The notes beneath the pieces were generated by a model, which made no database searches, was not told the DNA's origin, and saw nothing but the letters and a program-made list of their open reading frames with translations. A program made the translations under genes and the position numbers. From assembly GCA_016178055.1 (NCBI GenBank), contig JACOUC010000036.1:9-64008 (forward strand): a DNA stretch of 64,000 nt, read 5' to 3'. This stretch comes from Chlamydiota bacterium. GTDB taxonomy: Bacteria > Auribacterota > JACPWU01. Positions 3,614-64,000 of the stretch are shown one piece after another; position 1 is the stretch's first letter; every line of letters starts with the position of its first letter.

Positions 3614-3617
3614 GCTT

Positions 3618-19887: not shown

Positions 19888-20069
19888 GACAACCCCTCTC
19901 GATCTTGAAAAAATCAATAATGACTGCAAGCTTACATAAGTAAAGACACTTTGGGGACTAGAAATGTAAAAATAAAAATTTAGAAATTTCCATCTCACAA
20001 TTGATAAAGGAAGGTTTCTTATAGAATAACCAGCTATTCCTTCAAGCCCTTACATAATGATTTCCTCTA

Positions 20070-22236: not shown

Positions 22237-22247
22237 ACGAATGAATC

Positions 22248-29244: not shown

Positions 29245-29345
29245 ATAGCCCGATAAAGGCAAACTATTCGAAAGAATGGGGCGCAAAGTTACAGATCCGA
29301 AGATTTTGAGTTCGTGAATCGTATAACATTCCACGAGTCAGGAAC
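29245..29345 (+). promoter_or_regulatory. c-di-GMP-I (GEMM-I) riboswitch aptamer
   Basis: 29258..29288 reads GGCAAACTATTCGAAAGAATGGGGCGCAAAG. This matches the core of the V. cholerae Vc2 aptamer as I recall it (GGCAAACCAUUCGAAAGAGUGGGACGCAAAG) at 28 of 31 positions. Two of the three differences keep the GAAA-capped stem paired. A second hairpin follows. Confidence 0.7.
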
Positions 29346-29403
29346 CCAGAGTCAGGGTGGCTGAACTGCCAAAGGCTGTGAACTTAGAGTTCCTTTGTGC
29401 ACA

Positions 29404-29435
29404 CCTGTTCTTCGAATAGAAGAACAGGTTTTTTT
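29404..29435 (+). terminator. Intrinsic terminator (riboswitch expression platform)
   Basis: CCTGTTCTTC-GAATA-GAAGAACAGG followed by TTTTTTT, 22 nt upstream of the pseudopilin ATG. Confidence 0.8.
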
Positions 29436-29456
29436 ATGGGCACGAAGAGGAACTCT

Positions 29457-33170: not shown

Positions 33171-33183
33171 CGATGAACAACGA

Positions 33184-33262
33184 GTCCACGGTCAACGGTC
33201 TACAGTCCATAGAAAAAAATAATTCCTTTAAAGCTGTGAACCGTTGACTGTGGACTGTGGAC
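33184..33262. repeat. Empty hairpin with heptamer-repeat arms between the transketolase subunit genes
   Basis: GTCCACG GTCAACG GTCTACA GTCCAT (33184..33210), a 23-nt A/T loop, then CTGTGAA CCGTTGA CTGTGGA CTGTGGA C (33234..33262). The arms are complementary arrays of GTCNACR. Confidence 0.75.
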
Positions 33263-33327
33263 CATTTTCCTCTAGATGGGTGGACGAAAGTTGGATGAAT
33301 TAAAATTACAATGACTAGGAAACATCT

Positions 33328-35550: not shown

Positions 35551-35577
35551 TGCGGGAATCTGTTACGCGGCGGCGGC
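35551..35577. repeat. Original copy of the repeat at the ORF2 stop codon
   Basis: See 34715..34740. The two copies bracket the MNT-HepT pair. Confidence 0.7.
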
Positions 35578-38500
35578 GGCGAGTTCTGAGATGGCTTTGA
35601 GGTTGTTGCGAGTGATTTCGTCAGAAAGGTTTTTGCGTTCGATATGAATAGTTTTATTTTCTCTAAATTGTTGTGCAAGATTCGGGTCAATTTTCCCAAT
35701 CATTTCTAACACCTCGGGACTGACAGAATCTACCTGAATATTGATTTCATCATTGCTTAAGAGAATGATGTTAAGATCTTTCGAAATCAAACCTTCATAG
35801 AGACTACGATGTTCCATATGAACGATAAATTGAAAGTCTTTTTTCTCCAGTGCTTCTAATCCATATCCAGGTTTGGCAAGTTCAGCCTTAATAAAGTTGA
35901 ACAGTGCCTCACCCGCTAGGTCCTTACTTTCAGGAGTAAGTAATAAGACACTTCTATTGTTTTCCTCTCCTGTTATGCTAAGCAAGCTGTCAAACTCTGG
36001 CCCCAATGCACTCTTTAAAGAATCCTTTTTAATCTGATCATGATTCATGAGCACAATTTTAAATCCCTTATTATTTTTCATCTTCTGAGCAGCTTCTTTC
36101 AAAATCTCAATATAAAAATCCGCCTCAGGTCGCTTGACTCCCTTTGCATCGACCAAATTAGCTAAATCAAAATCAACGACGCCTTTTCCTTTACCAAACG
36201 ACTCGCGGCTGTTCACAAAGAGATTTAAGAAAGCTTTTGTTGCAACACGAAGATGATTGGGTAGCACTCGTATGTTTTTCAGCTCCTCGTCCTTCCATCG
36301 ATCAATCTGTTCAGATTTGGTTTTTAAACTTAGCTTTTCAGCATCCGTCATTTCATATTGATCAATTTTGGATTTGAAAGTGCTCGAAGGCTCTAATCCA
36401 TTCAGCTCTTCTCCACTGGCAAGTTTCATCTCAAGCTGCAATCTCCAACCAGCCTCGGCTGCAACGCCCGAGCGATGGGCATTAAGGCTCGAGGCTCGAG
36501 GCTCGAGGCTCGAGGTAGAAGACTTTTTCAGGCCAAACTCCCTATCTTCATGATTAAAAATATCATCAACAACATCTTTAAAGTGAATCCGCCCATCAAA
36601 AAGGGTTACCGTCGCGGCTTCAATCAAATATTCAATGGGGATGACTGACCAGCGAACGCCATCCACATCTACCGTGACAGAAGAAGCAGTAGAGACGACT
36701 CCATCTGCATCCGTCGTTGTGAAATAATAGGGATGCCGCCCCCTATCTGGCGAGTCGTTGCGACTTGCAAAAATAATGTTGCGGTCTGTAAACCATTCTT
36801 TGATCTGAGCATCGGTCAACGCCATTCCCCTAACGCTTAAACTATTCTTTAAACGCTCCACATATCCATCAGGTCCCGATTGACGATGTTTAACCTGCTC
36901 ATAAATATCTTGGGCATTTTCTTCAGAAAAATGACCGGACCCAATGGTGCGGGAGGTGATAGAAGAGGGCATCGCTGGAGCTATCGCAAGTGGATCCATA
37001 AGGCTCTGAACCTGAACAGTCTTATCATCCGAACCCTTGCTTCGAATGTTTAAGTTTGGTTGGGTCCTGTCGTCTAAGATATCTATCCCTTCTGCCTGCT
37101 CAACCAGGACGCGTGGAACATCTCTCACAGGAACCCTTGAAATCACTCTTCCCATCTGCGAGTCACTGAGGGGATCAGAGATTCCATCCGTCATTTCAAG
37201 TAGCCAAGACCCTGATGGAACCTCTTCTGCTACAACGACTATTGGAAAATATAGATGATTGGCAATCAGGCTATTCACCACCCTGTTTCTTCTCTGCCAC
37301 AGTTGCTCAGGAGTATATCGATTGAAGTCACTTGGAATGAGATGTTCCCACTTCTCAAAATCACCCTCCTGCTCCACAGTAGAATAAAAGGGCTGCAAGG
37401 TCCATATCAAACGTATTTTTTTTGCCCTTCGGGCATCGTAAATAAGAAGTGACGAAGAGGTTGTCACTGGATAATTGTCTATCGTTAAAGGTAAAAGTTT
37501 TGTCTTAGGCCTTCGTAAATAGACCCGAGAATCGCCCGCATTAATGGTATAGACCATATAGGTTCCGTCTTTTTTTGGGATCACAAGAGACACGGCTGCT
37601 GTTGTCCCCATTCTATTGATCGGAAAAAGTTTTAAAAAAATATTCCAATCCTTTCCGTAGAAGAAAGATTCCAACTCATTAATCCGCGCCTCAGATCGAG
37701 ATACTGCATCAAAAGCCTCTAATATACCCCTTTGATTATCGCGAAAATGTTTCCTTAAAGATTCGACATCACCCTGGGTCGTTGACCCTCTCTTCATCTC
37801 CTCGACCCATTCGGGTGTAAAAATTGACGGCTCAGAAGAAAAGGATTTTCTCAAAACTCTTTTGATCTGATTGCGATCATGGGCGCTTAAGGGGATGCGC
37901 AACACACGAGAGATGATGTTATCTAAGTAGGACTCGATCATCGATTCCGGCACTTCTTCTAAGATCATATAAGGATTTGGAACTTGGCTCATCTTCTCTA
38001 TGACAGAGTGGGCCCTTTTAAAAGAGCGAGCAAGGATTGTATAAACCTGATCTTCATCCGAGGCCTCCTCTAATTCCTCGGAAAGGATAGAGGAAATCAC
38101 AATCTTGGCAAGGGTACTGGCGACCTGCCCTCCAGGACGACCTCCCACGCCATCCAAAACGCCCGATACCCTCCAGCCATTCCTTAAAACCATCGCAAAT
38201 CGATTGTCCTCATTTCGATCCGGATGCGCACTGGAAGCCTTTGTCAGATGTGAAAACACAGTGGCTTCAACCCTCCATCGGTCGACATCCTGTGCTAAAC
38301 TCTCAAGGGAAGCTTGATCATTATGAGAAATGTTTGGATCATTGCGGATTTCGAGAATCAATTTTTCAGAGGGCGCTAAACCTTGTAAATATTTCTGGTC
38401 GCTTCTCTTCCTAGCCAGCAAAAGATCATGATGGATGCGCTCACCCTTTGAGGCACGGTATTCAGCGGCGACACCCACACGATGGGCTTGTTGACGAAGG

Positions 38501-41500
38501 TCAATAGACAACTGGTCGATTCGACTGACTCCCACTTTCTTCATTAGCTCAAGCAATCTTTGATATTCACTTCCTTCATGGGTCACAATGCCACTCACCA
38601 CTCTATCAATGTCTGTATCAAGCTCGCCAGAGGGTTCAAGATAATCGACGGTGATGAGGGTGTAAAGCTGGTTATTCGCCACAAAACTGATGGATGGACT
38701 GCGGGCTCCGATGATATTGGTAAGATAGTGAGAATCTCTTTGACGATCACCTCCCGGCATTTCTCGTAAGTCGCTTAACCGAACATAAAGAACTTGCACG
38801 TTTTGGGCCAATGCCGTTTGATCTATCTCTTCGAGATCGAGGCCCCACTGGGCACACTGATCACGCGTGTTTGTTTGAGTCGTTTTAATTCGATTTACAA
38901 AATCCGTCACACTCAAACTCGTCACATCCGAAAGCTGAATATCCGGGTGATTTCCAACGACATGGGAGTTAAAGCTTCCAGAACCTCCTGAAGTTTCAGT
39001 GTCCCATCCTTCCATACCCATTAGACCCCACTCACCCTGTCCAGTAAAGCTCATATCTCCTCCTGCCGATAAGAAGCTGGCCATGCTGGATTCTTCCGCC
39101 TTCAGCTTTTCACCAAGGCTAATAATCTCGAGCAACTTTTCTCTCGCTTCCTCAAAATCCATTCTGTTTTTTGCTGGATTCAAAACTTTTTGAGTTTCTC
39201 CATCAACAACCACCGAGGAACGATTTGCCGCAAGCTCGTTATGTAATCCCTTCTTTACCCACTCGATCCACAATTTCCACATTTCTCCCTCTCCTCGACC
39301 CAGAGGCCTGTTATCTTCCAAAATATTCAGATTAGGCTGTGCAAACAATTTTCTTAAAAACACATTCACTGTTTTTCTAAATGCTGGATATTGTTGAACA
39401 AGTACTCTCAAACCTCCATGAACTCCTTTTAAAAATTGGTTTGCATTTATCCACGAAATTTCTTCTTCTTGAATATCTTGATCAGAAAAAGGATCTTTTC
39501 CATGACTCAAAACATGAAAAATCATAACAGCCATGCCATATAAATCAGAACGTCTTAAAGGATCTGGATCACTGACATCAACCGGTTCTAAATGTTGCTG
39601 AAACATCTGTGTTAATAACTTTTCCGGTGATAAATAAGAGGAACTGCCTGATACTTGTCCTCCATCTTTAGAAAGGTCATCTGTTTTAGACCTTGCAAGT
39701 CCAAAATCGATCAATTGGGTCTGAAGCGTTATCGGATCTACGATCACATTATCTTCTTTAACATCATGATGATTGACATCACCGTCTTGAACTCCTTGTA
39801 AGGAGTTCAGAAAATTCAGCGATACGCGAGCCAGTTTGATCATGTCGTCCACCGAAAAAGCCCCAGATGATGGAAAATCCTTCACCCAATCATCGAAGGT
39901 CACCCCTTCTACCCATTCCATCGCAATAAAAAAGGACTTTTTCTCTTTTTTCTCTACACCTGAAACGAAAGTTCCTTCTCCAAAATCATAAATTGCTGCA
40001 ACATCTTTACGATGAATTTTGGCTTGAAGTTCAGCCTCCCTCTTAAAGAAAGGTAATTTGTCTTGATCCAATGCCTCTTTAATCAGAACGCGTCTGCCAT
40101 TCTCATCCTCTGCAATCCAAATCCTTCCCATTCCGCCTTGGGCAAGGTAGCCAACAATGTCATAACGATTTTCGAGCCTTGACCCCATATAGGGATATTC
40201 TGATAATTGCTTGCCTTCTAATTTACGAATAGCATCTTGGGCTTCTCCAATCGATAAATCTATACTTGCAATTATATTCTTATGATCAGTGATACGACTT
40301 TTATAGATATTCTTATCTAATCCATTTAAGAAACTCTCAGAAAAAGAAGCAATTCGTTTTATATCTTTAGTAATCTCCCATTTTTCCAACCTTGTAAGCA
40401 TAGTATTCAAGGAGCCTGTGAATGCGGCAGTAAAGGCATCAAAATTTAAAATGACGGTTTTTGGAGAAGTTGTAAGTGTCTGTAAAATAAACTCACAAGA
40501 TTGCTCAAAGGAATCCAATGTTCTTGGAGTTTGAACACTGTTTAAGTTTTCAAGACCTGCAATTAGAGCAATATAGGCATTGGCTAAATGAAGCTGGCTT
40601 TCAAGAGAGGCACCTCCTCTTTGAAGGGATTCAAGATTATTTCTGACCTCTGGTAAAAGAGGAGAAACAAGAGGATTCGTCGAATGATAACTCAAAAGGG
40701 CTTCGATCTTCCACTCATCTACTTGATTGGCTAAGCCCTCAAGATCTTTTGCACCTGTTGGAAGCTTAAGTTGAGAAGCAGGTTTCAGAGATTGAAGATA
40801 TTGAATATTTCCTGTCTTGGCAGCAAGGAGGATGTCCCAATGAATTCTTTCGCCATGAGTCTGAGCAAATTCTGTTCTGACACCCGTCTGATGGGCTTCT
40901 CTTCTAAGCGATTCAGGAAGAGCAGCTATCGTGTCTACCTGAGCTTCACCCATCCTCTCTATCAGCTCTTGATATTCCGACCTCTCATGAACGACAATAC
41001 CTCGGGCAGTTTTTTGAACATCTAAGCTTTCATCAGGCTTATCTTTTAAATAATCCACACTGATCACCGTGTAAAGCTGACCATTCACCACAAAACTGAT
41101 GGAGGAGCTTCTGCTCTTACCCGTTGAATCCGTGAAATAATGAAGATCTTGAGAACTGATCCGGCCAGGAAGGCCATTTAGAGTTGTGAAGAGAATATGA
41201 TGGGTTGGGTCCCCTGCTGTGACTGTCTCTAAAGACTGAGCATCAAGACCAAACTTGCTACATGCTTTTCGCATCTCCTCTTGCATACCTTCTAGCTGCT
41301 CAACAAATTGAGTATCTGTAAGGGTAGTTAAATCAGAAAGTTGAATGTCCTTATTTTCTCCAATGGTGTGGGATTGGAAAATTGGAGTAACTCCAGAAGC
41401 AGAAACAAGTGCTTCCCAACGGTATTGGGTGGGGAATGTCTGCCCTATTTGAGTGATGATAAGGGTTTGTCCATCTTGGCTTAAATTTAAGGAAAACTGA

Positions 41501-44500
41501 GGTGTTGAAATCTTTCTAGCGTTAGTATCATCTGGCAAGAGAAGATCCGATTCAGCAGTTTTTTTAGCGCGGCTTCCAACTGTGACGACTTTACCTTGTT
41601 CTAAGATAAAGTTTTCAACACCCGGCTGCCGGCCAGGGGCAAAAATCTTATCCCCCTTTTTAGGAAGAGAAAGGACAAACTGTCCTGAACGGTAATCTAT
41701 ATGTAATATCTCTTTATCAAAGCTTTCGGGTGCGCCAAGTTTTTTAACTAACCCTTTCACTCCTAAAACTAAGGTTCGGTTTGAGAAGTTGCCGGGTCCT
41801 ACCGGAAGACTGTCTCCGCTTTTCAATTCATTTATCCATTTTTCTGCTTCTACTTTGACAGCAGATTCAACGAATGGCGTGGGTGGTTTTTCTTCACCCC
41901 TAAATGAGGTTCGAGAACCCAAATGTTCTACTTCCAAGTCATCTTCAACTCTTTGGATTCTGACATGTTTTTCTGAAAGAGCTTGAAACAGACGGAGTAA
42001 AGTCTTATCATCCCTTCCTAAAATTTGGCCAGCAGTAAGATGATCCTTATTCCATTTACAAAGACTCGTAGAAGAAATTCCTTTCCCTTCAAAAGACAAA
42101 GCAACCCCTCCATCCAGTTGGAGTGAAACTCTGACTTCAATCGACTCCTCACTGCGTGCTCCAGGCACTCTAAGAATCAAATCTTTCTTTTCCAAAACAC
42201 TCATCGGAAAACGCAATAAAGGCCCCGGTTGATCCTTTGCAGTCTTTACTTCACCTAAGGGGGTATTTTCTAGAGGCAAATCTTTCAGTTCTAAAACTTT
42301 TCTTTGAGCTGAAGGCTGGACTGCAAGAGGAGCAAATTTTGAAGGCTGAATCACCTCTTCATAACCGGTCATGTCATCATCTTTTGCACGACCTCGTAAA
42401 GGATGTGTAGAACCTTTATTGGCAGATGTATCTCTAACTTCACGACTCTTTTGAATCAGAAGAAGAGGGGCCTCTCCAGGGGCTGTTTCATCCATGATTT
42501 TATCAATTGAATCGTGGATCGAACCGCCTGGAGTCTCGTCGGGTAAATTATCTCTCAGTCCATCGCACACCCCTATTAAGCGAGTGCCAGCCTTCACTCC
42601 CTCAGCTTTTACGATAACAGGAATACATTTCATACCCGGTGTTAGAGAAGTTCCGAGGGCGTTCCTGTTTTCAAAAACTTCTTTAGGGTTTCCTTGAAGA
42701 TTGCTAGGAAGCAAGTTCTCACAACGATCACAATCACGAAGACTTAGAACGGAGGCCAAGAAAAGTTGAGGGGTGTTTTTTCTAGCCTTATCAGCCTCAT
42801 CCAAAGAGATAGACCTGTTTCTTTGTTCTTCTGAAGGAATATAATTATCAATGGTCATCACACGTAATTTTTTACCGGGTTCCTTCAAATAAAAACCGGT
42901 ATCCCCTACATTAATCACGTAAATATTGGAAGTCCCATCAGATTGGGGAACAATGATCGAAGTTCCTCCCGCTGTTCCCATATTTGAAAGGGGGAAAAAC
43001 GCCTTCCAAAATGCTTCTATAGATTGATTCTCATTGATTGCCCGATCCATTTTCCTATTCATTTCCTTTACAAAATTTCCTATCAATTTTTTAGCATCAT
43101 CTTGTTTCAAATTAAGAAAAGTATTTGAAAACTGTTTTCCTACCTCTATAGTAAAGAATCTCTTCCAATCATTTAAAACAGAATCTTTTAAAGTAAGAAA
43201 ATTATATTGTTTATCTACATCCTGACCATATACAGATTTCAGATAACCCAGAACGGCGTTAGATAAAAGATTTTCAATTGAATAAGCAGCAAAATGACTC
43301 TTCATCACCCCACGAATTTCCGAGACATCAAATGAAAACTTCAAACGCCCCGGAAGCAAATTCAAAACTTTTTCTAAAAATGAATCCAAAAACTCATCCT
43401 CAAAAAGAGGACGGGGAAGACTTGCAACTAATTCAATCGCAAGTTGAGCTTTTTGATAAGCCTCACCCAAAATCGAAGGGATTTGCTCTTCTGAAGCATT
43501 TGAAATTTTTTGTTTAAGATATTCGCTCACGACAACTCTGGCAATGGTGCTGGCCACTTCTCCTCCTGCCGCCCCTCCCATTCCATCAAAGACGCCTCCT
43601 ACAATCATCTCATCCTTCAAAACAATTCTAAAATAACTGTCTTCATTTCGCCCCATGTGTGCATTTGCAGCGAGAGTCGCCATGCTATAGACTCCAGGTT
43701 CTCTCTTGACTTCAATCCCTATCTCCTCCTCTTCAAGTGAAAGTTGGCCCGGCTTATCCTCATAAGAAATCGTTAGACCTTCTCTATAGCCAATGAAAAG
43801 CTTCCCATCGCTAACACGAAGCGAAACACGACCGATCGGTGTGCCTCCGTTAACCGAAGGAAGGCGAATATTTCTAGTATTGGTATGAGGTCCTAAACTG
43901 CCCAAAAGAATTTTTTCTTCTAAAATATCAGTGGCTCTTGATCCCAAACTTACTTCCTCATCATTAGATCCGATCCGAGAAAAATTAAAATTCCCATCTT
44001 CGAGACTAACTTTCACAACAACCGAATTTCCTAAATCTGGCGAAGAACCCGTCCATGTCAGAAGAATATCCTGAGACTCTAGATCTGTCAGATTGATCTC
44101 TTCAAGTCCGGTAGAAGCTATAACATCAAAGTCATCAATGGCTTGATCTATGGTTTGAGTTCGTTGCTGTGGGTCTTTCTCAAGAAGTTTTCTCAACCAA
44201 TCGACCCATGGAGAAGGTAAATTCAGCAAGCGGGGATGATGAGGATTTTTCTCGAAAAAATCTACCGCAACAGTATTCGTTAAAACTTGCCGTTTTTGAC
44301 CTTCGTCAAGAAATGCCTCTGCCCCAAAAGGATTTTTGCCAGTCAAGGCCTCTAAAAAAAGAGTTCCCAGTGAAAATAAATCTGAAGAGAATCGAACGCG
44401 ATAGCCAGGGGCACTTTCAGAAATTTGATCTATATCTACAATCTCAGGGGCCATATAACCAAGCGTTCCAACTATGCGATGAATCTCTTCATTGACCGAA

Positions 44501-53500: not shown

Positions 53501-56500
53501 GAACTTCCAACCCGTAATTCTTGATCACCAACCTGAATGACGCTCTCACCAGAAACCACAATGAATTGACCCTTTGCTGAATCATATGTAATAGTAATAG
53601 GCGCCTCTGAATAACCTGCGAGTTTGACCTGTAAAATTTTTCCAGATAAGAGATCAGGTGAAATGCGGTAGAATTCTCCTTTCTTCCAAACTCCTTCTTC
53701 CAGCGATATAGATTGTGAAAATCTGATTAAGGCTTCTTCCTTCCATTGATCTATTTTTTGGGCCAGCTCACCAAGGACATCCGCATATTTAACAGGCAAA
53801 CCTTGCTGGACATATTCTTTAATCTTTGATTTATATTCACGAGCACTTTTGAGATTGTCTAAATAAGCCCAATCGCCTCGTTGAGTTGCACTGAAAATTT
53901 CATAACGAATTCTTTCTCCTTGAGAAGCTCTATATTCTGCAACCACCCCAACTCGATGCGCATGAAGTTGAACTTTAGAATCCTTAGATTGTTTGGCCAA
54001 ATTTTCTTTTGTCTCATGGAGAGCGACACCTCTGATCATTTTCATGATATCAAAATCAAGGGCTCTCGCTTCTTTCAAAGACTCTAGGCTCATCACCGTA
54101 TAAAGTTTTCCATCCACTTCAAAACTGAGGGTCGAACTCTTGCCGCGCGAGCCTTCAAAGAAAACAGAAGTCGAATCTGTCCCCGAACGCAAAGCCCCCG
54201 GTAAATCTTTTAGAGAGGTAATAAAAATATTATTCTCTTTAAGCCAATCAGATTCATCTTTTTTCAAACCTAGTCCAGGGGAACTTCCATTCACCAAACC
54301 AATCTGTAAACGTTGAAGAACCATTACAAAATCTATCGAACTCAATGAAGTTAAATCCCCTAATGCCAATTCCTGATGCTCGCCCACCGGCTGAGCGGTG
54401 GAAAGAGGAATTATTTCCGCTACCGGAGGGCCACTGGCTTCGAGAGCAGCTATATTAACTTCTACCTCAGACAGCTGTAACCCCATAACCTGACTGGTTT
54501 TTCCATCGATTAAAAAAGTAGCGAGATTAATTATTAAATTTTTTCCGGGCAAACCTTCAAGAGGAATCGCACATAAAAGCTCGCTTCCTTGTAAAATGAA
54601 TTTTAAATTTTGAAGATCTAGAGAGAAATCTCGAAGAATAGCCCCTGGCGACGACCGATCTTGTTCGAGCGCAGTCGAGAACCCGCTCTTTCCCATAGCC
54701 TGAAGCCTTGCCCCAACAAAATCACCAAAAGATTGTGGACTGACAGCCGCATCAGTTGCTTTAAATTCAGCATAAAGACTTTTTAAAATGGTCGAAATCA
54801 ACTGAAGTTCATAGGCAATAATCGGAGCTCGGTCTTCGGGAAGGCCTTCAGCATTGGTCATGAGCCAATGCATGAGACTCTTCTGGCTCGAGGCTCGAGG
54901 CTGGAGGCTAGAGGAGGAAATAGGAAGAGATTCATTTTCTGCTTCTTCGGTTTGTTTTTTTTCTTTTGTTTCTGCCTCGAGCTTCGAGCCTCGAGCTTCG
55001 AGCCTAAGATTTTCCCCCACCCATTTCTCAAAAGGGGTCAGCTCCCCCATCATTACAGATTCATAGCGGTCCGCAGAAGATGCATTAAAATGAGGGATGA
55101 AGACAACATACGAGTAGCCCGCCTGTTTCAAGGCTTCCTTTAGAGCTGGAGTATGGAACCCCCCGGTCATCACGGCCCCGAAAGACTCATCAGACTCTTT
55201 CAAGCGATTTAACGCCCGAAGCGTCATTTCATGATCCCGTTCAAGCGTTGCTTCATAATAAGGTTCGATCTGGCTAAGCCGATCGGCCAAGGGATAATGG
55301 ATATCTTCAGCATGCTCTTCTACAGTGTAAGCCCCCGATTCATGCTGAATGAATTTTAAAATTTTTGGAATGAGCTTATCTTTTTTAGAAACGTATTCCT
55401 GATATTCAGATTTCTCAATGGAGAGATCTGTAAGGCGATCCAGAAGATTAATAAAGGATGAATAGAGGCATAAAGATTTTTCTTCCTCGGTCACACATTC
55501 AGCAAATAAGGTTTCAAAGGCAAGTTTTTGGATTTGTTCAAAGAGGAGGGCATCACTGACTTTTTGCACCGCTTCGAGATAGTTCATGTAGTTTTGGATA
55601 TTTGGATAAGAATTTGAAATGCTCGAGGCTCGAGGCTCGAGGATCGAAGCAGGCATAGAAAGCTCCATAAACCTCTTCACTGTCTGATAAAATTCTAAGG
55701 GGGCAATCTCATTCAAACGATACGATAAAGTCTGCTCTAAAAATTTGGCCATTTCCTCATCACTGGCCTTTCCGTTGACGGCGATGAGAAGCTTTCCCAT
55801 TTCATTGTGAATTTTCTTTAGATCAATATTTTTCTTGAAGGGAAGCGTTGCAAGATAAGGCTTAATCTCTGAAAAATTTTCAAGATTGATTTTTGCCTTT
55901 TCGCTCTCCCTCATGAGACTTCCCATAAAATGCTCTAAATCTATTTTGTAGGTAAGATAGTCATTCAATTCCCTTACAAAACTCTGAACTTCACCTGTAT
56001 AGACATAATCCGAAAACTGAGCCATTAAAATTTTTAATTTAGCAATATGCTCTTTCAATTCTTTGCGAAGAGAGACCGTATCCCGGTAGGCATGATAATT
56101 TTTTAAGTAGAGATGGATATCCTCAATCCCATAAAGTTGAAGAGGCTTTTCTCCATTGATCGCTTCAAACTCAGCACCCGTGAGCTGACCCAAATTGAGA
56201 TATTCCTCGGACACCTCTTTTAATATTTTTTTATCGGGGAAAGATCGAAAGCGTTGGGTCGAGAGCTCACCCGAGGCGGCTTCGATGTTGATCCTTTTAA
56301 GATTATATTTTTGAGCGAGATATTCTAAGAGGTCCACCGTATTTTTCTGAGCTTGAGGATGGGCATGAATATCCTGAAAGAGGAAAACGGTATGGCTTGA
56401 GTTCGGCGCTTGATACGTCTCGATCACCCGTCCCAGCTCTGTCGGAATAAAAATAGAGGAAGAATTTTCAAGAGAAGAAATGGACGCCGCTTCTTTAGCC

Positions 56501-56601: not shown

Positions 56602-56701
56602 AATCCTTCTCTTGAGAAAAGCATAACTTTTCTCTCCGTTTGATAAAGTAAACTTCTCGACTCTCTCTCGATAAACTCAAGATCACTCGAAGAATAAAAG
56701 A

Positions 56702-59700
56702 CTACGCCTTTACCGCAGCCAAGTCATACATCTGACGCGTTGCTTTATATTTTTCCTCGTCTAATTCTTCTTTCTTAAGATGCACGCTATAGGTCTTCAC
56801 TCCTTGTCCCACCTCTTTTGCCTTAAACCGTTTTGCAAGCTCTGCATTCATTGCGCTCAATTTATCAAACATCGTTTGATCAAGCTGGATATCAATCGCA
56901 TCGCCCAGTATGAGTTGATTCAAAATTTTCGAGTAAATAGATTGATGGCTGGGGTCGATCACAACCTGAATATTTTGAACTTGTAATCCCATTAAACCCT
57001 TCGCCTCAGCCGCTTTTATAATATAATTTTCCATATTTTCAGGGCTTGCCTCTTCTCGAGTGGGTGCCTGCTCAAAAATAATTCCTTCATTTCTAAATCT
57101 CAACAAAACTTCGGCTCCAGGAATTTTCTTATCAACCAATGCCTGAAGGCCACCGATCTTACCTTCATGGTCAACCAATACTATTTTCATTTGGCCTTGA
57201 CTCTGACGCATCTGGGCCGCTGCTTTTACTAAAACTGCAATTGAAGCCTCAGCCCCAGGACGAGCGATATTATTACCATCCACAAGAGTCGAAAGATCGA
57301 TCAGCAAAAGCGCCGGAGCTCTATCCAGTGCCTCTGGTCTGTCCATAAAAAGTCCACGAACAACTCCCTCAAGCGCTTCAGCCTTAGACGCTTCAAAACG
57401 ATTCGCAGATGTTTTCCGGATTGACTTCTGAAGCAATGCAAATTGTTTAACCGAGGTCTCAAATTTTTCAATTTGGAATATGACATTATCCGGAGACTTT
57501 CCTAAGGCTGTTAATATCAAGGGTAAATATTGCTTAATAAATTCTCTCTGCTCAGCACGATCATCTCCAATCACAGCTTGAAGGGCATCTAGATCCATTT
57601 CTCGAATTTCATTCCAGAGAAATTCTACTTGAGTAATATCAGTCCAACCATTTTCAATGATTTGAAGGGCCCAGGCCAATATATGACTGACACGAGCAAG
57701 ATCTGGTAACTCCCCCAACCCCTCTTGAACCAAGAGGGGAGTCCCTCCTACTGAAGTCTCTCCCCTTTCTTTTAAGGGGGAGCTGGAGAGGTTACTCTCC
57801 ATCCAATTTTTAATAAATATTTCCATCTTTTCATGCTGAAGAGCAATTTTTTTATCTTGGGCATTCCTAGAAATAAATATATAGAGCTTGCCATCATTCC
57901 CATAGCAGTGATAGGCCCCGCCGACCGTCTTTAAAATATCTTTTAAACCTGGAAACAATTTTTCCAGATGAGGATCATTTTCATCATAGTTCACTTCCTG
58001 ATACGTTGTAACCCCTCTAACTCCCCTTAAACTAAGGGGAGAGCCCGTCTCCCTTCCCGATTCAAGAGTAGCCATCTCCCCTCTTGGTTCAAGAGGGGTT
58101 GGGCGAGTTACGTTCTTTAACTTACTTAAATAAGGGTCGCCATCATCAATTGTCACCGTCCGACTCTTACTAATTTTTTTTAGATTTACTGCAAATTCAA
58201 TCATCTTTAATTCCTTATCACGACTCAAACTCACTTGATGATGCACCAATTTCTTACGAGCTCCGCCGCTTCCTGGCGTACCAGAGCCCGGAGGTGTTTT
58301 GGAGCCTGAAATTCGGGCGAGCCATCGGACGAAGGGAGATTGCGCAAACGCTTCAACCTTAAGCCAAGAAATTCCTGCCAATGTTGTATAAATTAGACTT
58401 TTTCGAAAGGTTAATTCCTCTAATGCCCTTTCCCTGAACCTTGATTCATAAGCGTTTAACTCGTCCATATTAATCTGCATAGTTCGCATAGGTTCTGGCA
58501 TGCGCCTATTTAAAGTTTCTATGACCCGATGCTGAAGAGATGCCCGCATTTCAGACGTTTCTGCTTCAACTCTTTCGAGAAATGCAGTGTCTTTCTCCCT
58601 CATTTTTCTTTCATGAAGTAGTGTCAACCCTTGTTTTCCATATTTGATGACCTCTAAAGCCGCCGCCCCTATGTGAGCTGCAAGGACAGCGATGCTATAT
58701 TCACGAGTTTCTCCACTATATCTTGCTCTACGCTGGACAAGTCTCTCTTCTAAAATAGGCTCTAGTTCATCTATCAAATCTGGATTGCTTATAATCCACT
58801 GCATCAAGTGCCATTCTGAAATTTCATGAACACCCACTTCGTCACGTTCTTCCATTTTAAGGTTTCGACTCATCCAAATTTCAACACGATTCCTTTCAGC
58901 AACTTTAATCACCGCATCATTTCCTTGAAGTTTATCAGCAGGCACCAAATAACAGCTTAGTTCGGCATCTTCACCCAAAAAGTTTTTAATCTGTTTATAA
59001 GGAAAAGATGGAATTAAAAATGACTCGTACTTATTTGACTCTGCCGGCTCATGAAGTGAGGGAAGACCCATCTCACCCTGAGAAGAACGGCTTTGATCGG
59101 CCCTTTGACCCGTAGAAGTAGTTGTAGAAACTGCATGAGCAAGCGTACCAAAAGCACCCGCCACCTCTGGAGCCAAAACATCATCAACGATTTCGATGTC
59201 AGGTGAAATTTCCTCTGGTAAAACAATGTCTAATTGATCTAGGGCCTCTGAAGTCGACATTCTCTGTGTAACGTCCTTCGCGAGAAGTCCTCTGAAAAAA
59301 GTTTGAAGATCGGAATTCAATTTTGAAAAAGCTGCTTCATATTGTCCATCAAAGGGATCGACATTTGTCACCTTTTCACGCCCTTTTACTGCACGACCTT
59401 GCCCCGTGGGCACTTCTCTATCCATGACTCGAAAGGGACTTGTGTTTAAAAGGGACATATATAAAATAACCCCCAGTGCAAAAAGATCACTTTTAAAACT
59501 GAAATTGCCATCATAAGTTTCTGGAGACATATAGGTAAGAGAGCCAATAATGAATCCGGATCGAACCTTTATTTCAGGAGAACCCGCAGCCCCAAAATCG
59601 ATCAGGGTCATTTTGTTTGTTTTAGGATTATAAAAGAAGTTTGCAGGCTTAAGGTCTCGATGGACTAAATTTAGGCCATGAACTTCTTCCAAGGTTTTCA

Positions 59701-62700
59701 GCAGCTCTTTAAAAGCCGTCAAAATATTATTCTGAAATGTTTCATATGTTAACTCTCCACTCACCAGTTGAGTTCGAAGGTTATGAACATATTGATCCCA
59801 TCTGATTGTCCCTTCTTCTTGAGTTACATCATCCATTGCAATGAATGAATCCCCATTTTCTAGAACACCAAACTCACGAACCGCAGGGTCTGGATTGTTT
59901 GGAAGGTCATGTACTTGTTTCTGAATTTGAGCTTCTCTTTCAGGGGTTGGGAGATAATGATAATCATCCTCTGGGCGAGGCGAAATAATTTTTAAAGCTA
60001 CGTGCTCGTTAGCATTTGTATCCAGAGCTCTAAAAACAGAACCTTGACCTCCTTCACCTAACTTCTCCAAAATCTGATAGTGACCCATGACTGTTCCAAT
60101 CTCATAAACATGTCTAGGTGTAGAAGGTGAAGCAGAGGGCGACAATCCACTCTCCCCTTCAGGAGCAGGTTCTTCTAGCAAGGCTTCGACTGGGACTTCA
60201 GGTCTAGCTAAAAAAGAGGAAGCCTCTGCCTCAGCCAAAATAACCGGTGTTATTCTCTCTAACTCATTCAAAGCCTGAGCGGCATTTTTGAATCTTTGAC
60301 TCACATGCTGATCTAGAATTTGTCTTATATAAGACATCAAGGGAGGAGAAATAGAAGCAATATCTTGTCCCTGAAACGCATCATTACCCAATTTCTTCGT
60401 TGCAATCACAACTTCTACATCTCCTGGAGCAATGCCAAAGGGAAAAGAAGCAGCGATCATATTAAAAAAGATTACGCCAGCAGAATACAAATCTGATTGA
60501 ACCGTTCGTCTTGTCTCAGGAGCTGCGTATAAGAAAGAAAGCTGCTGAAGGGCTTGTTCTTCTTCCGTCTCACTTGTTGAAGAACCAAAATCAAGGAAGG
60601 TGATTTGATGCTTAGAGGCATTGTAGCGTATATTTTCAGGTTTAAGGTCATTGTGTAATATCCCCCGAGCATGAAGTTCACCCAAAGCAGTCAGTAAAGC
60701 TTTAAAAAACGTTAGCATCTCTTGCATGTATACATCTCTTGAAAGAGTTCCTTCATCCATCCCATCTTGTAAGCGTACAATATAATCCTGAAGATCTTCA
60801 TCTTGATTAAAGTCCATCACAAGAAAATGACGTTGGCTCCCCTGATCATAACCATATCCATAAACTGAGGGGGCAGGTCCTCCATCGCGGGATGCAGATA
60901 ACTGACGTTGATATTCTTGCTCAATTTTTCTTTCGGCATCCTCAGCTCCCTCTTTCATCCACTTAATAGCACGTACATTGCCATCAACATCCTTAGCCTC
61001 CCAGGTTTCTGCAGTCGTTCCTTCACCTAATTTATTTACTAAGCGATAGCGACCATCAATAATCGTTGCCCCCTGACGATTCCATTGACTTAACACTTCA
61101 AAAGCTTGGACTTCAGCATTCAAAGCTTCTAAGGCATCATTGATATTCCAATAAAGCTCATCCAGTTGTTTTCTATCTTCCGCCGAAAGTTGAGCCAAAG
61201 CATCTCTTGCACTAACAAAATCATTCACTAAATTTGCTTCGCTCAGATTTAACGACGTCACCTCATCAGGTGAGGCAGAAGATAAATCTTCCCTCCATCC
61301 CTCAACTTGATTCATTGCCTCAGCAATACGATTCCGTAGAGAAAGCATTTGAGACCGAAGCGTCTCTTCTCCTTCAGACCCAGCCAATTCAGGAGACGGA
61401 GCTTCTTCTCCTCCACCAGCCAATTGAAATTCATCTAAAGAAGCGCTGTTAAAATCAATTCTCAAAACGGGCAGAAGATGATCATAAGTATGCTGATCTG
61501 GCGAAGACAAAACCTGCTTCAAAATTGCCTTTCGTTGCTGGTGAATTCCTGTTTCTAATACAGGATCATTTAATTGGTTTAAAATAGATCTCAAGTCCTG
61601 ATCACTTTCAAGAAGTCCTAAAAATTCGACATATCGCTCATCGATTCTTTTCAAGGAGGCCCCGCTCCCTTTCGGAAGTTTCCGAGCTCGATCAAGGAGA
61701 CAATCCATCCAAAAGGCTGAAACAGCATGAGGAGTAAGCGTCTCCACAAAAGTATTCCCTAAAACGCCACGAGCAAGAACCTGTAAGGGTGCTTTAAAAG
61801 GTTTCATTCCCTTTTCACTGTAAGGTCTAAATCGAAAAATGAGGGGCTCCCCTTTTATTAATCCAAATACAAGCCGGGCCCCTTCTTCATCCAAAGCACT
61901 ATATAAAATTTTAATCCCTTCACGATCTCTATCTTTTAACCACTGCGCTAATTCAGGATTTTTCTCTCTCCGCTTACGCGCATAAGCAAGCGTTGCTGCC
62001 GTCAGAGCAAATTCAGCCTTAAAATCATCTCCCACTTGCGTTTTTCTTCTGGGATCCGTGCTGATAAATCCAATGCCATCCTCTAGAGCAAGCATTTCTC
62101 CAATCCCCTTTAGATCTTCAGCCGTCAACGCATATTCTGGATCGCCCATTCTCTTCAGATAAAGCTGATAAGCCTCTTCAATAGAGTCCCTCGGAATCAC
62201 AGGAGAAATCACATGATAGGAAATATTTTTTTGTTGAAAGAATTTTTCCAAACCAGGGGTATGATAACCCCCAACCATCAGAACAGCACTCTTAACATTT
62301 TTTTCAGAAAACGAAGCCATGAAATTTTTGGCGATTTCTCCATCGCGAGATTTAATAGTTTTGTAATATTGCTCATACAATGGAAAATATTTTTTCAATG
62401 GAGCACTATCTTCGCCCATAAACTGCTGAATTTTATCCCAGCCCAAACGCTCAATCGTTTCCTCAACAAGCGTTAAGTCATCTTCACGACCTCTTAATTC
62501 CGCCATTCTTTTAAGGGCATAGAGCCATTCAAAAATAATTGCGGATTTATCAGAAATAAAACTCAGTTTAAGATTCTCTTCAATCTCACGAATTTCTTCC
62601 ATCAATTGATTGTCATTAATTTCAGTTCTAAACTGATAGGCCTGAATCGAACGGTCAATATTAGGGTAATCTTTTAGATTAATTTCTGAGCGCTTAGAGA

Positions 62701-63754
62701 AATCAATCAGAGCCAGATAATATTCATTAATTGAAAGCTCATTCATTCGATATTGAAGCGTCAGTTCAAGTAATTGAATGAGATCCTTTCGGGATAATTC
62801 ATCACCTAAAACATCCAGAAGCTTTCTCTCCTCATCTCCCAAGAGACTTGGATGAATTTCTTTTTCCATTTCAAAGTAATGAAGAACGTTTACATAATTT
62901 CGGATTTTGGATTTTGGATTTTGGATTTTTAAGGAGATCTGTAAATCGCTTAAAGCCTGGCAATAATCAAAAAGGCTTAATTCGTGACGAACATATTGAT
63001 CATGAAATTTAATCAATGAAATAAGTTGAGAGTTTTTTGCCTCGAGCCTCGAGCCTCGAGCCTCGAGCTGCTTTATTAATTCCTCTAAAACGGGCAGGAC
63101 TTCATCCTTCACCTTTAAAACATCTAAAAAGAGTTTCTTATTTTTTAAATAGTAAAGAGGCGTTTCAATTCCATAGAGAAGTGGATTGGACTCACTTGTA
63201 ATGGCATAAAACTCAGGCCCATTGAGCTTGGCATTTTTCATCAAAAATTCTGCAGTATCTCGGCGGATTTCTGGATCTGGAAGATTCTTAAAATAAGAAT
63301 AATCAAGGGCGCCACTGGCGCCTTCAAGGGCGATGAGAAAGCTGGAGCTTCGAGCTTCGAGGCTACTTTGGCTCGAGGCTCGAAGCTCGAGGCTCGAGGT
63401 AAATACTTTCTCAGTTTTTGCTTTTGTTTCTGCTTCGAGCTGATTTTCAATAATTTCCAAGATCCTGGCCATTCGCCATTGGACTTCAAAGTTCCCGTGG
63501 GCGTCTTGAAGGAGATAAATGGTTTTTGCATCTTTATCGGGAGAAATCCAGCTTCGCTCAATCCATCCTAATTTTTGAGGAATATAAAAATCTATATTTT
63601 TACCGAGAGAAGAAACGGAAGCAGGATTAAAGGGCAGCGTTTGCGCAAAAAGACTCTGGGAAGAGAAAATCATATCTTTCTCTATCAAAGAGAATGCGAA
63701 GGCAACCGTCACCCCAATACGGATCAATTTTATAAATAATGTTTCTCTTTTCAT
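56702..63754 (-). CDS. Giant multidomain ORF3 (2350 aa). Order: signal/TM, ChaN/TraB-like N-domain, 2x Ser/Thr kinase, unknown modules, shared C-terminal domain.
   Basis: Uninterrupted ORF. N-terminus MKRETLFIKLIRIGVTVAFAFSL. It lies 100 nt upstream of ORF2 on the same strand. Confidence 0.8.
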   Translation of the reverse strand: MKRETLFIKLIRIGVTVAFAFSLIEKDMIFSSQSLFAQTLPFNPASVSSLGKNIDFYIPQKLGWIERSWISPDKDAKTIYLLQDAHGNFEVQWRMARILEIIENQLEAETKAKTEKVFTSSLELRASSQSSLEARSSSFLIALEGASGALDYSYFKNLPDPEIRRDTAEFLMKNAKLNGPEFYAITSESNPLLYGIETPLYYLKNKKLFLDVLKVKDEVLPVLEELIKQLEARGSRLEAKNSQLISLIKFHDQYVRHELSLFDYCQALSDLQISLKIQNPKSKIRNYVNVLHYFEMEKEIHPSLLGDEERKLLDVLGDELSRKDLIQLLELTLQYRMNELSINEYYLALIDFSKRSEINLKDYPNIDRSIQAYQFRTEINDNQLMEEIREIEENLKLSFISDKSAIIFEWLYALKRMAELRGREDDLTLVEETIERLGWDKIQQFMGEDSAPLKKYFPLYEQYYKTIKSRDGEIAKNFMASFSEKNVKSAVLMVGGYHTPGLEKFFQQKNISYHVISPVIPRDSIEEAYQLYLKRMGDPEYALTAEDLKGIGEMLALEDGIGFISTDPRRKTQVGDDFKAEFALTAATLAYARKRREKNPELAQWLKDRDREGIKILYSALDEEGARLVFGLIKGEPLIFRFRPYSEKGMKPFKAPLQVLARGVLGNTFVETLTPHAVSAFWMDCLLDRARKLPKGSGASLKRIDERYVEFLGLLESDQDLRSILNQLNDPVLETGIHQQRKAILKQVLSSPDQHTYDHLLPVLRIDFNSASLDEFQLAGGGEEAPSPELAGSEGEETLRSQMLSLRNRIAEAMNQVEGWREDLSSASPDEVTSLNLSEANLVNDFVSARDALAQLSAEDRKQLDELYWNINDALEALNAEVQAFEVLSQWNRQGATIIDGRYRLVNKLGEGTTAETWEAKDVDGNVRAIKWMKEGAEDAERKIEQEYQRQLSASRDGGPAPSVYGYGYDQGSQRHFLVMDFNQDEDLQDYIVRLQDGMDEGTLSRDVYMQEMLTFFKALLTALGELHARGILHNDLKPENIRYNASKHQITFLDFGSSTSETEEEQALQQLSFLYAAPETRRTVQSDLYSAGVIFFNMIAASFPFGIAPGDVEVVIATKKLGNDAFQGQDIASISPPLMSYIRQILDQHVSQRFKNAAQALNELERITPVILAEAEASSFLARPEVPVEALLEEPAPEGESGLSPSASPSTPRHVYEIGTVMGHYQILEKLGEGGQGSVFRALDTNANEHVALKIISPRPEDDYHYLPTPEREAQIQKQVHDLPNNPDPAVREFGVLENGDSFIAMDDVTQEEGTIRWDQYVHNLRTQLVSGELTYETFQNNILTAFKELLKTLEEVHGLNLVHRDLKPANFFYNPKTNKMTLIDFGAAGSPEIKVRSGFIIGSLTYMSPETYDGNFSFKSDLFALGVILYMSLLNTSPFRVMDREVPTGQGRAVKGREKVTNVDPFDGQYEAAFSKLNSDLQTFFRGLLAKDVTQRMSTSEALDQLDIVLPEEISPDIEIVDDVLAPEVAGAFGTLAHAVSTTTSTGQRADQSRSSQGEMGLPSLHEPAESNKYESFLIPSFPYKQIKNFLGEDAELSCYLVPADKLQGNDAVIKVAERNRVEIWMSRNLKMEERDEVGVHEISEWHLMQWIISNPDLIDELEPILEERLVQRRARYSGETREYSIAVLAAHIGAAALEVIKYGKQGLTLLHERKMREKDTAFLERVEAETSEMRASLQHRVIETLNRRMPEPMRTMQINMDELNAYESRFRERALEELTFRKSLIYTTLAGISWLKVEAFAQSPFVRWLARISGSKTPPGSGTPGSGGARKKLVHHQVSLSRDKELKMIEFAVNLKKISKSRTVTIDDGDPYLSKLKNVTRPTPLEPRGEMATLESGRETGSPLSLRGVRGVTTYQEVNYDENDPHLEKLFPGLKDILKTVGGAYHCYGNDGKLYIFISRNAQDKKIALQHEKMEIFIKNWMESNLSSSPLKERGETSVGGTPLLVQEGLGELPDLARVSHILAWALQIIENGWTDITQVEFLWNEIREMDLDALQAVIGDDRAEQREFIKQYLPLILTALGKSPDNVIFQIEKFETSVKQFALLQKSIRKTSANRFEASKAEALEGVVRGLFMDRPEALDRAPALLLIDLSTLVDGNNIARPGAEASIAVLVKAAAQMRQSQGQMKIVLVDHEGKIGGLQALVDKKIPGAEVLLRFRNEGIIFEQAPTREEASPENMENYIIKAAEAKGLMGLQVQNIQVVIDPSHQSIYSKILNQLILGDAIDIQLDQTMFDKLSAMNAELAKRFKAKEVGQGVKTYSVHLKKEELDEEKYKATRQMYDLAAVKA
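57719..58106. repeat. Two inverted pairs of perfect short hairpins inside ORF3
   Basis: CCCCTCTTG-AAC-CAAGAGGGG (57719..57739) with CTCCCCTT..AAGGGGGAG (~57759..57782). In reverse-complement order, CTCCCCTTA-AAC-TAAGGGGAG (58029..58049) with CCCCTCTTG-GTT-CAAGAGGGG (58086..58106). Confidence 0.75.
59225..60082 (-). other. ORF3 block: Ser/Thr protein kinase domain 2
   Basis: LGEGGQGSVF, VALKII, HRDLKPANF, IDFGAA, SLTYMSPE. Confidence 0.8.
60260..61051 (-). other. ORF3 block: Ser/Thr protein kinase domain 1
   Basis: LGEGTTAETW, RAIKWM, HNDLKPENI, LDFGSS. Confidence 0.75.
62902..62929. repeat. In-frame (GGATTTT)x4 heptamer tract
   Basis: Translated as KIQNPKSKI in ORF3. Confidence 0.85.
63039..63068. 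repeat. In-frame (CCTCGAG)x4 tract
   Basis: GCCTCGAGCCTCGAGCCTCGAGCCTCGAGC, translated as LEARGSRLEA. Confidence 0.85.
63341..63441. repeat. In-frame palindromic (GCTCGAG)n hairpin element
   Basis: Arm 63371..63398, loop TAAATACTTTCTCAGTTTTTGCTTTTGTTTCTG. Translated as LEAETKAKTEKVFTSSLELRASSQSSLEARSSS. Confidence 0.85.
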
Positions 63755-63844: not shown

Positions 63845-64000
63845 TTACGCTGCTTCTTGGGCCATCGGATGCACCCTTCTTCTTTCATCTAATCTTTGAG
63901 AAGGACTTGAATTCGTAGATGGATCATTCGATAATCCTGCAAGCAAGAGATCCACAGCCCCAATAAAATCCGCTTCAGTTGCAATATCTCTAAAATGGGC
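63845..64000 (-). CDS. 3' end of a further minus-strand ORF, truncated by the window edge
   Basis: My own translation of the open frame running from the window edge: AHFRDIATEADFIGAVDLLLAGLSNDPSTNSSPSQRLDERRRVHPMAQEAA, then a stop. The Ala-rich C-terminus resembles the ends of ORF2 and ORF3. Confidence 0.4.
   Translation of the reverse strand, partial: AHFRDIATEADFIGAVDLLLAGLSNDPSTNSSPSQRLDERRRVHPMAQEAA

Follow-up and report, generated by a model that had tools for sequence, protein, structure and literature searches.

How three open reading frames (ORFs) of thousands of codons come to open with one and the same domain, and where the enzymes carried behind that domain would work, is the question raised by a 64,000-nucleotide stretch of contig JACOUC010000036.1 (assembly GCA_016178055.1), hereafter the window, which belongs to a metagenome-assembled genome (MAG) labelled 'Chlamydiae bacterium' by NCBI. 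The three ORFs lie on the minus strand and together make up 69% of the window: ORF1 (3931..19998, 5355 aa), ORF2 (35563..56601, 7012 aa) and ORF3 (56702..63754, 2350 aa). A first-pass annotation had read them as one modular family with shared ends and swapped cargo. We found that all three begin with a signal-like segment (hand-rule scan) followed by a homologous domain (BLASTP), which we call the head, and that the head recurs in at least 322 loci, alone or fused, so that the family extends well outside the window. The claim of shared ends holds in full only for ORF2 and ORF3, which also have a C-terminal tail in common; ORF1 is a third paralogue that shares the head but lacks the tail. From the N terminus, ORF2 reads as signal, head, dark modules, membrane cluster, a half made of kinases and PP2C-like phosphatases, and HAD-like tail, and ORF3 as signal, head, two Hanks kinases, a module termed X and HAD-like tail.

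The head occupies 55042..56460 in ORF2 (aa 48-520), 62165..63592 in ORF3 (aa 55-530) and 17599..19707 in ORF1 (aa ~98-800), in each case on the minus strand. By BLASTP, ORF2 residues 8-503 align with ORF3 residues 6-518 at 24% identity (E 2e-29), and ORF1 residues 37-471 align with ORF3 at E 8e-18. The motifs said to bracket the domain, (E/Q)D(I/A)H....Q and GG(F/Y)HT, were found in all three proteins: EDIH at 125 and GGFHT at 757 in ORF1, QDIH at 76 and GGFHT at 480 in ORF2, and QDAH at 83 and GGYHT at 495 in ORF3. Between them lies a third motif (CEAADG 232, IEAASG 106 and LEGASG 143, respectively). The proposed length of ~450 aa between the motifs does not hold for ORF1; heads are generally ~470 aa long, and that of ORF1 reaches ~640 aa between its motifs because peptides derived from hairpin repeats have been inserted in frame. 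Four residues are conserved across the paralogues, namely, D77, H79, E107 and H483 in ORF2, D84, H86, E144 and H498 in ORF3, and D126, H128, E233 and H760 in ORF1.

The genes that carry these heads are intact and under selection. None of the three contains an internal stop over its 5355, 7012 or 2350 codons, and the coordinates and frames of the tandem pair were confirmed: ORF3 and ORF2 run head-to-tail with a spacing of exactly 100 nt, and each has AGAAGGA at Shine-Dalgarno distance 5' of its ATG. ORF1 as listed starts at a GTG and has an odd 37-residue leader (19887-19998); translation probably begins instead at the ATG at 19887 (M38), which would give a typical signal-like N terminus, MLVRFMR followed by SLISLCVCFSFLFY. 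The ORF2 protein has been deposited identically from two assemblies (MBI1870667.1 and MBI3276470.1) and the ORF3 protein nearly identically, under the NCBI name 'protein kinase [Chlamydiae bacterium]'. A second MAG, GCA_016178005.1, encodes an ORF3-like protein (P0021, 2688 aa) and, 158 nt further on, an ORF2-like protein (P0022, 3866 aa), indicating that the ORF3-ORF2 order is conserved; a gene for a 19,623-aa protein precedes this pair on the same strand. Nei-Gojobori counts between orthologues, in which relaxed selection would betray pseudogenes, gave pN 0.27 and pS 0.74 for the ORF2 head, pN 0.34 and pS 0.74 for the ORF3 head, and pN 0.38 and pS 0.68 for the tail. Such saturation of synonymous sites, together with restraint at replacement sites, points to purifying selection and not to decay. 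That the ORFs are pseudogenes, assembly chimeras or chance open frames, as the repeat-derived peptides that interrupt them and the lack of detectable relatives for about half of ORF2 might suggest, has next to no probability, given that 7012 stop-free codons at 42% G+C are impossible by chance, that the same proteins come from two assemblies, that orthologues in another MAG retain head, tail and gene order, that pN lies well below pS, that ribosome-binding sites stand 5' of the ORF2 and ORF3 starts, and that every repeat insertion keeps the reading frame.

A word-indexed search with ORF2 residues 1-530 returned 18 head homologues, 17 of them stand-alone proteins of ~500-520 aa and one an 896-aa protein with a kinase. 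In the alignment of these 18 sequences, Q76, D77, H79, Q85, E107 and G480-G-F-H-T-P485 (ORF2 numbering) are invariant, and D77, H79, E107 and H483 remain so in an alignment of 22. The count of at least 322 loci was obtained by scanning a single genome for each GTDB species, and nearly all of these loci are titled Omnitrophota or uncultured Planctomycetia-type MAGs. Of the 80 best loci, 44 have the head at the start of a long ORF and ~34 have it as a gene of ~520 aa; the fused ORFs extend to >3,800 aa, and many leave the locus edge. At one locus (L015 9968-15076), a 525-aa 'stand-alone' head is directly followed by a 1177-aa ORF that starts with a linker of the fused type (...KGSMLAP...). The pattern reads as a fused gene split by one stop, through sequencing error, pseudogene formation or recoding.

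What kind of domain is the head? It had been proposed to be ChaN/TraB/GumN/Tiki-like, and the part of this proposal that stands concerns the fold and the catalytic pattern. An AlphaFold2 model (predicted local distance difference test, 79.9) has a central parallel beta-sheet core flanked by helices, as is characteristic of TIKI, TraB, ChaN and EreA; in the head, this alpha/beta core is split by an all-helical insert (residues 162-469 in ORF2). The structures tabulated for the head, with figures that carry no label, are a 'Succinoglycan biosynthesis protein' (2rad, 9.4), a TraB family protein (8bqs_DQ, 9.0), ChaN (2g5g, 8.9), EreC (6xcq, 8.9), HopBA1 (5t09, 8.6), PMT (2ebf, 8.1) and RRSP (5w6l, 7.6). 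Active members of this superfamily have a constellation of two His and two Glu residues (E3900, H3902, E3930 and H4030 in RRSP; H85 and E113 in Bcr135; PMC6254334). The head appears to offer its counterpart in D77-x-H79, E107 and H483, which follow in the same order. The spacing of 28 between His79 and Glu107 in ORF2 equals that of H85/E113 in Bcr135 and of H3902/E3930 in RRSP (PMC6254334). The placement on the fold is also alike, with acid-x-His after strand 1, the Glu at +28 after strand 2, and, beyond a late strand, G-x-H with the second His. The head differs from the superfamily in the ~300-aa helical bundle between its two halves and in forming the constant N terminus of very long multi-enzyme proteins.

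The part of the proposal that failed concerns sequence. Across 18 head members, Pfam gave PF04187 (ChaN) below threshold in 2 (best E 0.0037), one of these matches covering the GGFH end of the ChaN model; other subthreshold Pfam matches in homologues (PAH_ZNF598 and DUF7952) were discarded as mostly spurious matches to the helical insert. Neither insert-free 'core-only' heads compared with Pfam nor a 22-sequence core profile compared with PDB sequences gave anything relevant, and nothing was found by a full-length head profile run against PDB sequences or by an NCBIfam scan of the head. Alignment with hhalign to E. coli YbaP alone was not significant, and neither was alignment to nine TraB/GumN sequences from plasmid records (P 0.0026, probability 11%), although this nonsignificant alignment does put R455...GGFH of the head in register with RN...VGAxH of TraB. 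Because no sequence profile detects the relationship, we do not assign the head to a named Pfam family, and we regard a fold of the TIKI/TraB/ChaN/erythromycin-esterase type as probable.

A head with this fold need not be an enzyme. ChaN, which binds haem, and the C2 domain of PMT belong to the superfamily without hydrolase activity (PMC6254334), and the head could likewise be a noncatalytic binding or docking module that directs the chain to a partner cell or to some component of the envelope. Such inactive members have lost the 2His/2Glu motif (PMC6254334), whereas D, H, E and H are invariant in 18 to 22 divergent heads and present in the three paralogues. This invariance argues for catalysis and makes a docking role quite unlikely.

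The tail was confirmed as a second constant element. As first reported, the last ~210 aa are common to ORF2 and ORF3: residues 6794-7012 of ORF2 align with residues 2135-2350 of ORF3 at 26% identity over 229 aa (BLASTP, E 4e-13), which places the tail at 35566..36225 (aa 6793-7012) and 56705..57355 (aa 2134-2350), both on the minus strand. A word-indexed homologue search for the tail returned nothing, and among 1.84 billion representatives searched exhaustively with HMMER, only five proteins had it: ORF2, ORF3, P0021, P0022 and P0023 (4541 aa). All five have it at the extreme C terminus, all five also have the head, and all five come from 'Chlamydiae bacterium' MAGs. The tail has a Rossmannoid HAD fold. 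Of HAD motifs I to IV (DxDxT/V, S/T, K/R and DD/GDxxxD), it retains the first Asp alone (FDL[AS]N); replacements (MNHD, H-x-S-H-x-x-x-Y) affect the other Asp of DxD, the motif II Ser/Thr and motif IV, which is acidic in HAD proteins. No Pfam or NCBIfam HAD model matched the tail, which also differs from the HAD superfamily in being seen only as the extreme C terminus of five giant proteins.

Between the constant ends lies the cargo. The interiors had been said to differ completely; in fact, ORF2 and ORF3 both contain Hanks kinases and a module of ~470 aa, module X, with HExxE[W] and AH motifs (ORF2 47314..48711, aa 2631-3096; ORF3 57437-58861, aa 1632-2106; minus strand). Domain scans of the full proteins with Pfam gave kinases in ORF2 and ORF3, PP2C in ORF2, and AAA+, GT4 and methyltransferase domains in ORF1. 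The two Hanks-type Ser/Thr kinases of ORF3 (59165..61099, minus strand; aa 886-1186 and 1221-1530) match PF00069 at E 2.9e-58 and 197.8 bits, and ORF2 scores 168.1 bits against the same model (cutoff, 31.7); the best PDB relatives are the bacterial PknB and PknA. Kinase 2 of ORF3 is fully canonical (GxGxxG, VALK, HRDLKPAN, DFG and SPE), and the others retain the catalytic Asp, DFG and APE with a degenerate Gly-loop or HRD. In ORF2, these are kinase 1 (44077..44766, minus strand; aa 3946-4175), with HLDLKPEN, DFG, APE and a degenerate Gly-loop, and kinase 2 (39472..40212, minus strand; aa 5464-5710), with HHDVKEDN, DFG and SPE. Two PP2C-like modules of ORF2, the second a duplicate of the first, pass their profile cutoffs marginally: module 1 (42325..43803, minus strand; aa 4267-4759) reaches 30.7 bits against PF13672 (cutoff, 24), and module 2 (36973..38364, minus strand; aa 6080-6543) reaches 21.1 bits against PF00481 (cutoff, 20.3).

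The remaining cargo of ORF2 is largely dark, with about half of the protein lacking any relative in Pfam, NCBIfam or PDB sequences. On the minus strand, module A is present in four copies (53713..54417, aa 729-963; 40675-41403; 38239-38997; and 36277-36804) with an invariant H-E-x-x-E ... A-H ... E, and module B is present in two (52288..53328, aa 1092-1438, and 46273-47280, aa 3108-3443) that are 51% identical and conserve YHEAxH, an HExxH motif; an isolated HExxH occurs at residue 1812. Modules A, B and X and the linkers received no assignment from Pfam (E<=1), NCBIfam or PDB profiles. A hydrophobic cluster (45853..46209, minus strand; aa 3465-3583) is predicted on the Kyte-Doolittle scale to form three to four helices, and its motifs are reminiscent of CPBP/Rce1 intramembrane proteases, which we take as a lead (Pfam Rce1-like, E 0.61). 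Judged by sequence, the cargo of this lineage consists of signalling and processing enzymes: Hanks kinases, PP2C phosphatases, putative HExxH/HExxE modules and membrane-embedded protease-like segments. ORF1 is different: besides a membrane segment that is M50-like and contains HEYAH, and other hydrophobic stretches, its cargo comprises a double AAA+ unit of the ClpB-like kind, a GT4 glycosyltransferase and a methyltransferase.

Relatives of these proteins keep the head, and the closest of them also the tail, with a changed interior. P0022 combines an ORF2-type head (E 1e-105) with the tail in 3866 aa and lacks modules A, B and X. Relatives in Omnitrophota have the head alone in common with the window proteins, and their cargo comprises PGK, PFK, PGI, PGM/PMM, NTP-transferase, GAPDH and PPDK. 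Because the closest relatives combine the same ends with very different interiors, constant ends with exchanged cargo is a fair description of the family. At loci with stand-alone heads, the large downstream ORFs on the same strand are fused glycolytic enzymes (PFK-GAPDH-PGK, aldolase-PFK-GAPDH and PPDK), each starting with its own signal-like segment; examples of such split operons, from loci L022 to L080, are L055 1905-7013 and 7064-11446, L079 11439-18947, and L075 5495-11284. Within ~40 residues after the signal-like segment, 26 of 44 split-operon ORFs contain [D/N]-x-L-R-x-x-[S/A], compared with 2.7% of background windows (p 1e-29). The motif, DxLR for short, may be a previously undescribed N-terminal sorting or processing motif that is paired with the head. 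The window itself holds no separate DxLR-bearing glycolytic fusion ORF.

A crude neighbour-joining tree of heads placed ORF2 with P0022 and P0023, ORF3 beside P0021 and the 896-aa protein that joins a head to a kinase, and ORF1 on its own. These are separate deep branches, indicating that the three heads are ancient paralogues; stand-alone and fused heads also fell into separate clades. A recent tandem duplication giving rise to ORF2 and ORF3 was rejected, since the distance between their heads is as large as that to Omnitrophota homologues.

Where the head and its cargo work depends on the N-terminal segment. Nearly all family members have an n-region of +2 to +4 followed by an uncharged core of 9 to 20 residues; in ORF2 (56491..56601, minus strand), the n-region KFFKK precedes a core of 12 to 13 residues. 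By its composition, we infer that the segment is a Sec signal or a signal anchor with the N terminus inside. No further hydrophobic segment occurs between the head, kinases and tail of ORF3, which therefore should share one compartment; in ORF2, modules A and X are found on both sides of the membrane cluster. Head and cargo would then be exported by the same route into one extracytoplasmic compartment, be it the envelope, the cell surface or a partner cell. There, the head, if an active hydrolase, could process or mature the attached chain in cis, and in split operons, it could act in trans on co-encoded cargo that bears its own signal and D-x-L-R. Cargo would be exchanged by recombination, and head and tail would be kept. 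TIKI, PrgY/TraB and RRSP are peptidases of the head-type fold, and by analogy with them, the simplest reading of a head that keeps a catalytic constellation is that of a processing or maturation hydrolase, which would work in cis or in trans. Ancient paralogues, a hydrolase head, joint export, processing in cis or trans and cargo exchange make up the explanation that we favour, tentatively and as somewhat short of an even bet when all of its parts are taken together.

Several findings weigh against that explanation. The first acidic residue of the head constellation is Asp, not Glu; no Pfam, NCBIfam or PDB-sequence profile connects the head to the superfamily, and Pfam gave nothing at E<=0.01 for the window heads; and a Foldseek search of the head model against the PDB was not significant (EreC at rank 22, E 0.61). 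Export was deduced by hand rules, not by a trained predictor, and the internal hydrophobic clusters of ORF1 and ORF2 are of uncertain helix number, so that parts of these proteins could sit on different sides of the membrane. No cleavage sites were found, and the window ORFs scanned contain no secretion system beyond one pseudopilin-like gene. Processing is an analogy with TIKI, PrgY/TraB and RRSP and not an observation. Finally, all recognizable cargo, in the window and in its relatives, needs ATP, nucleoside diphosphate (NDP)-sugar, S-adenosylmethionine (SAM) or NAD, which are expected in the cytoplasm and not in the periplasm.

This last point keeps a different reading serious: the proteins may be cytoplasmic mega-enzymes whose N-terminal helix only anchors them to the membrane, as a signalling hub of kinases and phosphatases in this lineage and as glycolytic or sugar-nucleotide assembly lines in Omnitrophota. 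Besides the cytoplasmic cofactors of all assignable cargo, it would account for the fused PFK-GAPDH-PGK and PPDK proteins, which may be the working glycolytic enzymes of the organism, and for the FHA-GAF-SpoIIE phosphatase gene that adjoins ORF1 and fits intracellular Ser/Thr signalling; EreA/B and Bcr135/136, of the same superfamily as the proposed head fold, are also cytoplasmic (PMC6254334). The N-terminal segments do not fit it well. With n-regions of +2 to +4, the positive-inside rule puts the N terminus in and the rest out, and a core of 9 to 16 residues would make a short membrane anchor. Separately encoded heads and cargo proteins each have their own segment followed by AxA-like sites, which is hard to explain for cytoplasmic enzymes. 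We consider cytoplasmic residence on balance unlikely. The joint-export explanation can be extended to a bolder form in which the head marks an as yet undescribed export-and-maturation pathway of Omnitrophota-like bacteria of the Planctomycetes-Verrucomicrobia-Chlamydiae (PVC) group, with a dedicated TIKI-fold enzyme acting in cis or in trans (via a signal peptide and DxLRxxS/A) on ATP-dependent cargo, namely, Hanks kinases and PP2C in the window and long parts of glycolysis in relatives, that is placed outside the membrane or in a host or prey cell; at present, we regard this as unlikely. The cofactor paradox would resolve if the destination were the cytoplasm of another cell, which fits the host-dependent lifestyles proposed for Omnitrophota (PMC10066038).

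All three giant ORFs are interrupted by repeats. Hairpins of 80 to 130 nt, with stems of ~22 to 25 bp and A-rich loops, are built from GCTCGAG heptamers and their complement, arranged in arrays, at 8845-8930, 17946-18052, 18538-18588, 18794-18920, 19432-19560, 36484-36528, 54881-55007, 55608-55652, 63031-63079 and 63342-63420. DNA folding z-scores for the six stretches folded ranged from -2.7 to -7.1. The elements are confined to the three giant ORFs, in frame and in one orientation relative to the gene; they are translated as ...LEARGSKLEAK...SSLEPRASSQ... and lie mostly in head-domain loops. None of the 83 related loci, sister MAGs included, contains the heptamer pair, and sister-MAG orthologues carry other repeat-derived peptides at the same head loops. 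The in-frame pattern recalls the Rickettsia palindromic elements that lie within coding genes. Within module X of ORF3 lies a 36-nt inverted repeat (arms 57706-57741 and 58076-58111, 97% complementary), each arm of which has its own small hairpin (CCCCTCTTG..CAAGAGGGG) and is translated in frame (...TPLEPRGEM... and ...TPLLVQEGLGEL...). By its sequence, it is the second such family of repeats inserted in frame. G/P-rich peptides of a similar kind interrupt P0021 to P0023, and similar hairpins fill intergenic gaps at locus L083.

The surroundings of the giant ORFs vary between related genomes. Upstream of ORF3, the last 51 codons of a further minus-strand ORF (63845..64000, the rest beyond the window edge) occupy the position of the 19,623-aa gene of the related MAG. 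The first-pass annotation had given it an Ala-rich end similar to those of ORF2 and ORF3; its stop at 63845 and its C terminus, ...AQEAA, are as described, but the likeness is limited to the last few residues, and the fragment has no similarity to the tail-domain profile or to the end of the 19,623-aa protein. The latter ends in ...DAQAA, and ORF2, ORF3 and P0021 to P0023 likewise have short Ala-rich C termini. Between UbiD and GDE (2667-22247), the window holds ORF1 and the FHA-GAF-SpoIIE phosphatase gene (20287-21978); in a sister MAG (L081 1831-10000; GDE 83% identical), the same interval contains ResB/CcsA-type cytochrome c biogenesis and cytochrome genes, indicating that ORF1 lies in a variable interval. 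Nearly all head relatives are in Omnitrophota MAGs, and the close relatives of the flanking GDE gene form a small isolated clade of 'Chlamydiae bacterium' MAGs (69 to 83% identity), followed by many phyla at ~52%. Other flanking genes (futalosine pathway, DUF1559 pseudopilin, and a PDDEXK_3 gene between TldD and PmbA) do not decide the phylum. Just upstream of the ORF2 end, transketolase is encoded as two genes for the N- and C-terminal subunits (32301-34287), and the L081 locus of the sister MAG likewise has a transketolase N-terminal gene where it ends. The plus strand carries a c-di-GMP-I riboswitch at 29248-29373 (Rfam RF01051, 56.9 bits, E 1.8e-08). It directly precedes a GspG/pseudopilin-like gene (29397-30494) that encodes an HX9DG/DUF1559 domain.

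Among known systems, a layout in which the ends stay constant while internal enzyme or effector modules can be swapped, with a protease that could release them, recalls MARTX and polymorphic toxins; RRSP, which is an effector of MARTX toxins, shares its fold with the head. The window proteins differ from these systems: by Pfam, ORF1 to ORF3 have neither RTX or glycine-rich repeats nor a cysteine protease domain, none of the scanned window ORFs is a type I secretion gene, and a Sec-type N-terminal signal takes the place of a C-terminal type I secretion signal. The TIKI-fold domain is the constant head here and not cargo. The closer parallel is with the giant multi-enzyme ORFs of Omnitrophota (West-Roberts et al. 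2023, 10.1101/2023.11.21.568195; 10.64898/2026.06.07.730766; Seymour et al. 2023, PMC10066038). Shared features are the phylum of nearly all head relatives, long ORFs tiled with cytoplasm-type enzymes (glycolytic and sugar-nucleotide enzymes included), signal or transmembrane predictions that conflict with the enzyme types, and tandem same-strand arrays. The window proteins are smaller (2,350 to 7,012 aa), are defined by a conserved head, lack SecA_DEAD, C39, S8 and dockerin domains (Pfam), carry signalling instead of metabolic cargo, and come from a MAG labelled Chlamydiae. Proteins of the 'archaeovorin' or dockerin type have >30,000 aa, many transmembrane helices, and SecA_DEAD or dockerin domains; those of the window fall short of this size and have few hydrophobic segments. 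The N-terminal regions of the Omnitrophota giants are reported to be generally without identifiable domains (10.1101/2023.11.21.568195). Searched by term, the three sources (10.1101/2023.11.21.568195, 10.64898/2026.06.07.730766 and PMC10066038) yielded no mention of a TraB-, ChaN- or Tiki-like head, and a limited, noisy literature search pairing Omnitrophota with TraB, Tiki or ChaN returned nothing relevant. If our assignments hold, a conserved and probably catalytic head of hundreds of giant proteins provides a handle for sorting them into families, its D-x-H/E/H constellation gives a concrete enzymatic hypothesis on their processing, and the paradox of cytoplasm-type enzymes behind export signals becomes sharper; the signal and DxLR on separate glycolytic fusion proteins would suggest a sorting or processing system. 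Giant multi-enzyme proteins were already known; what this family adds to them is a head that is conserved, a HAD-like tail of rare occurrence and the DxLR motif associated with the head.

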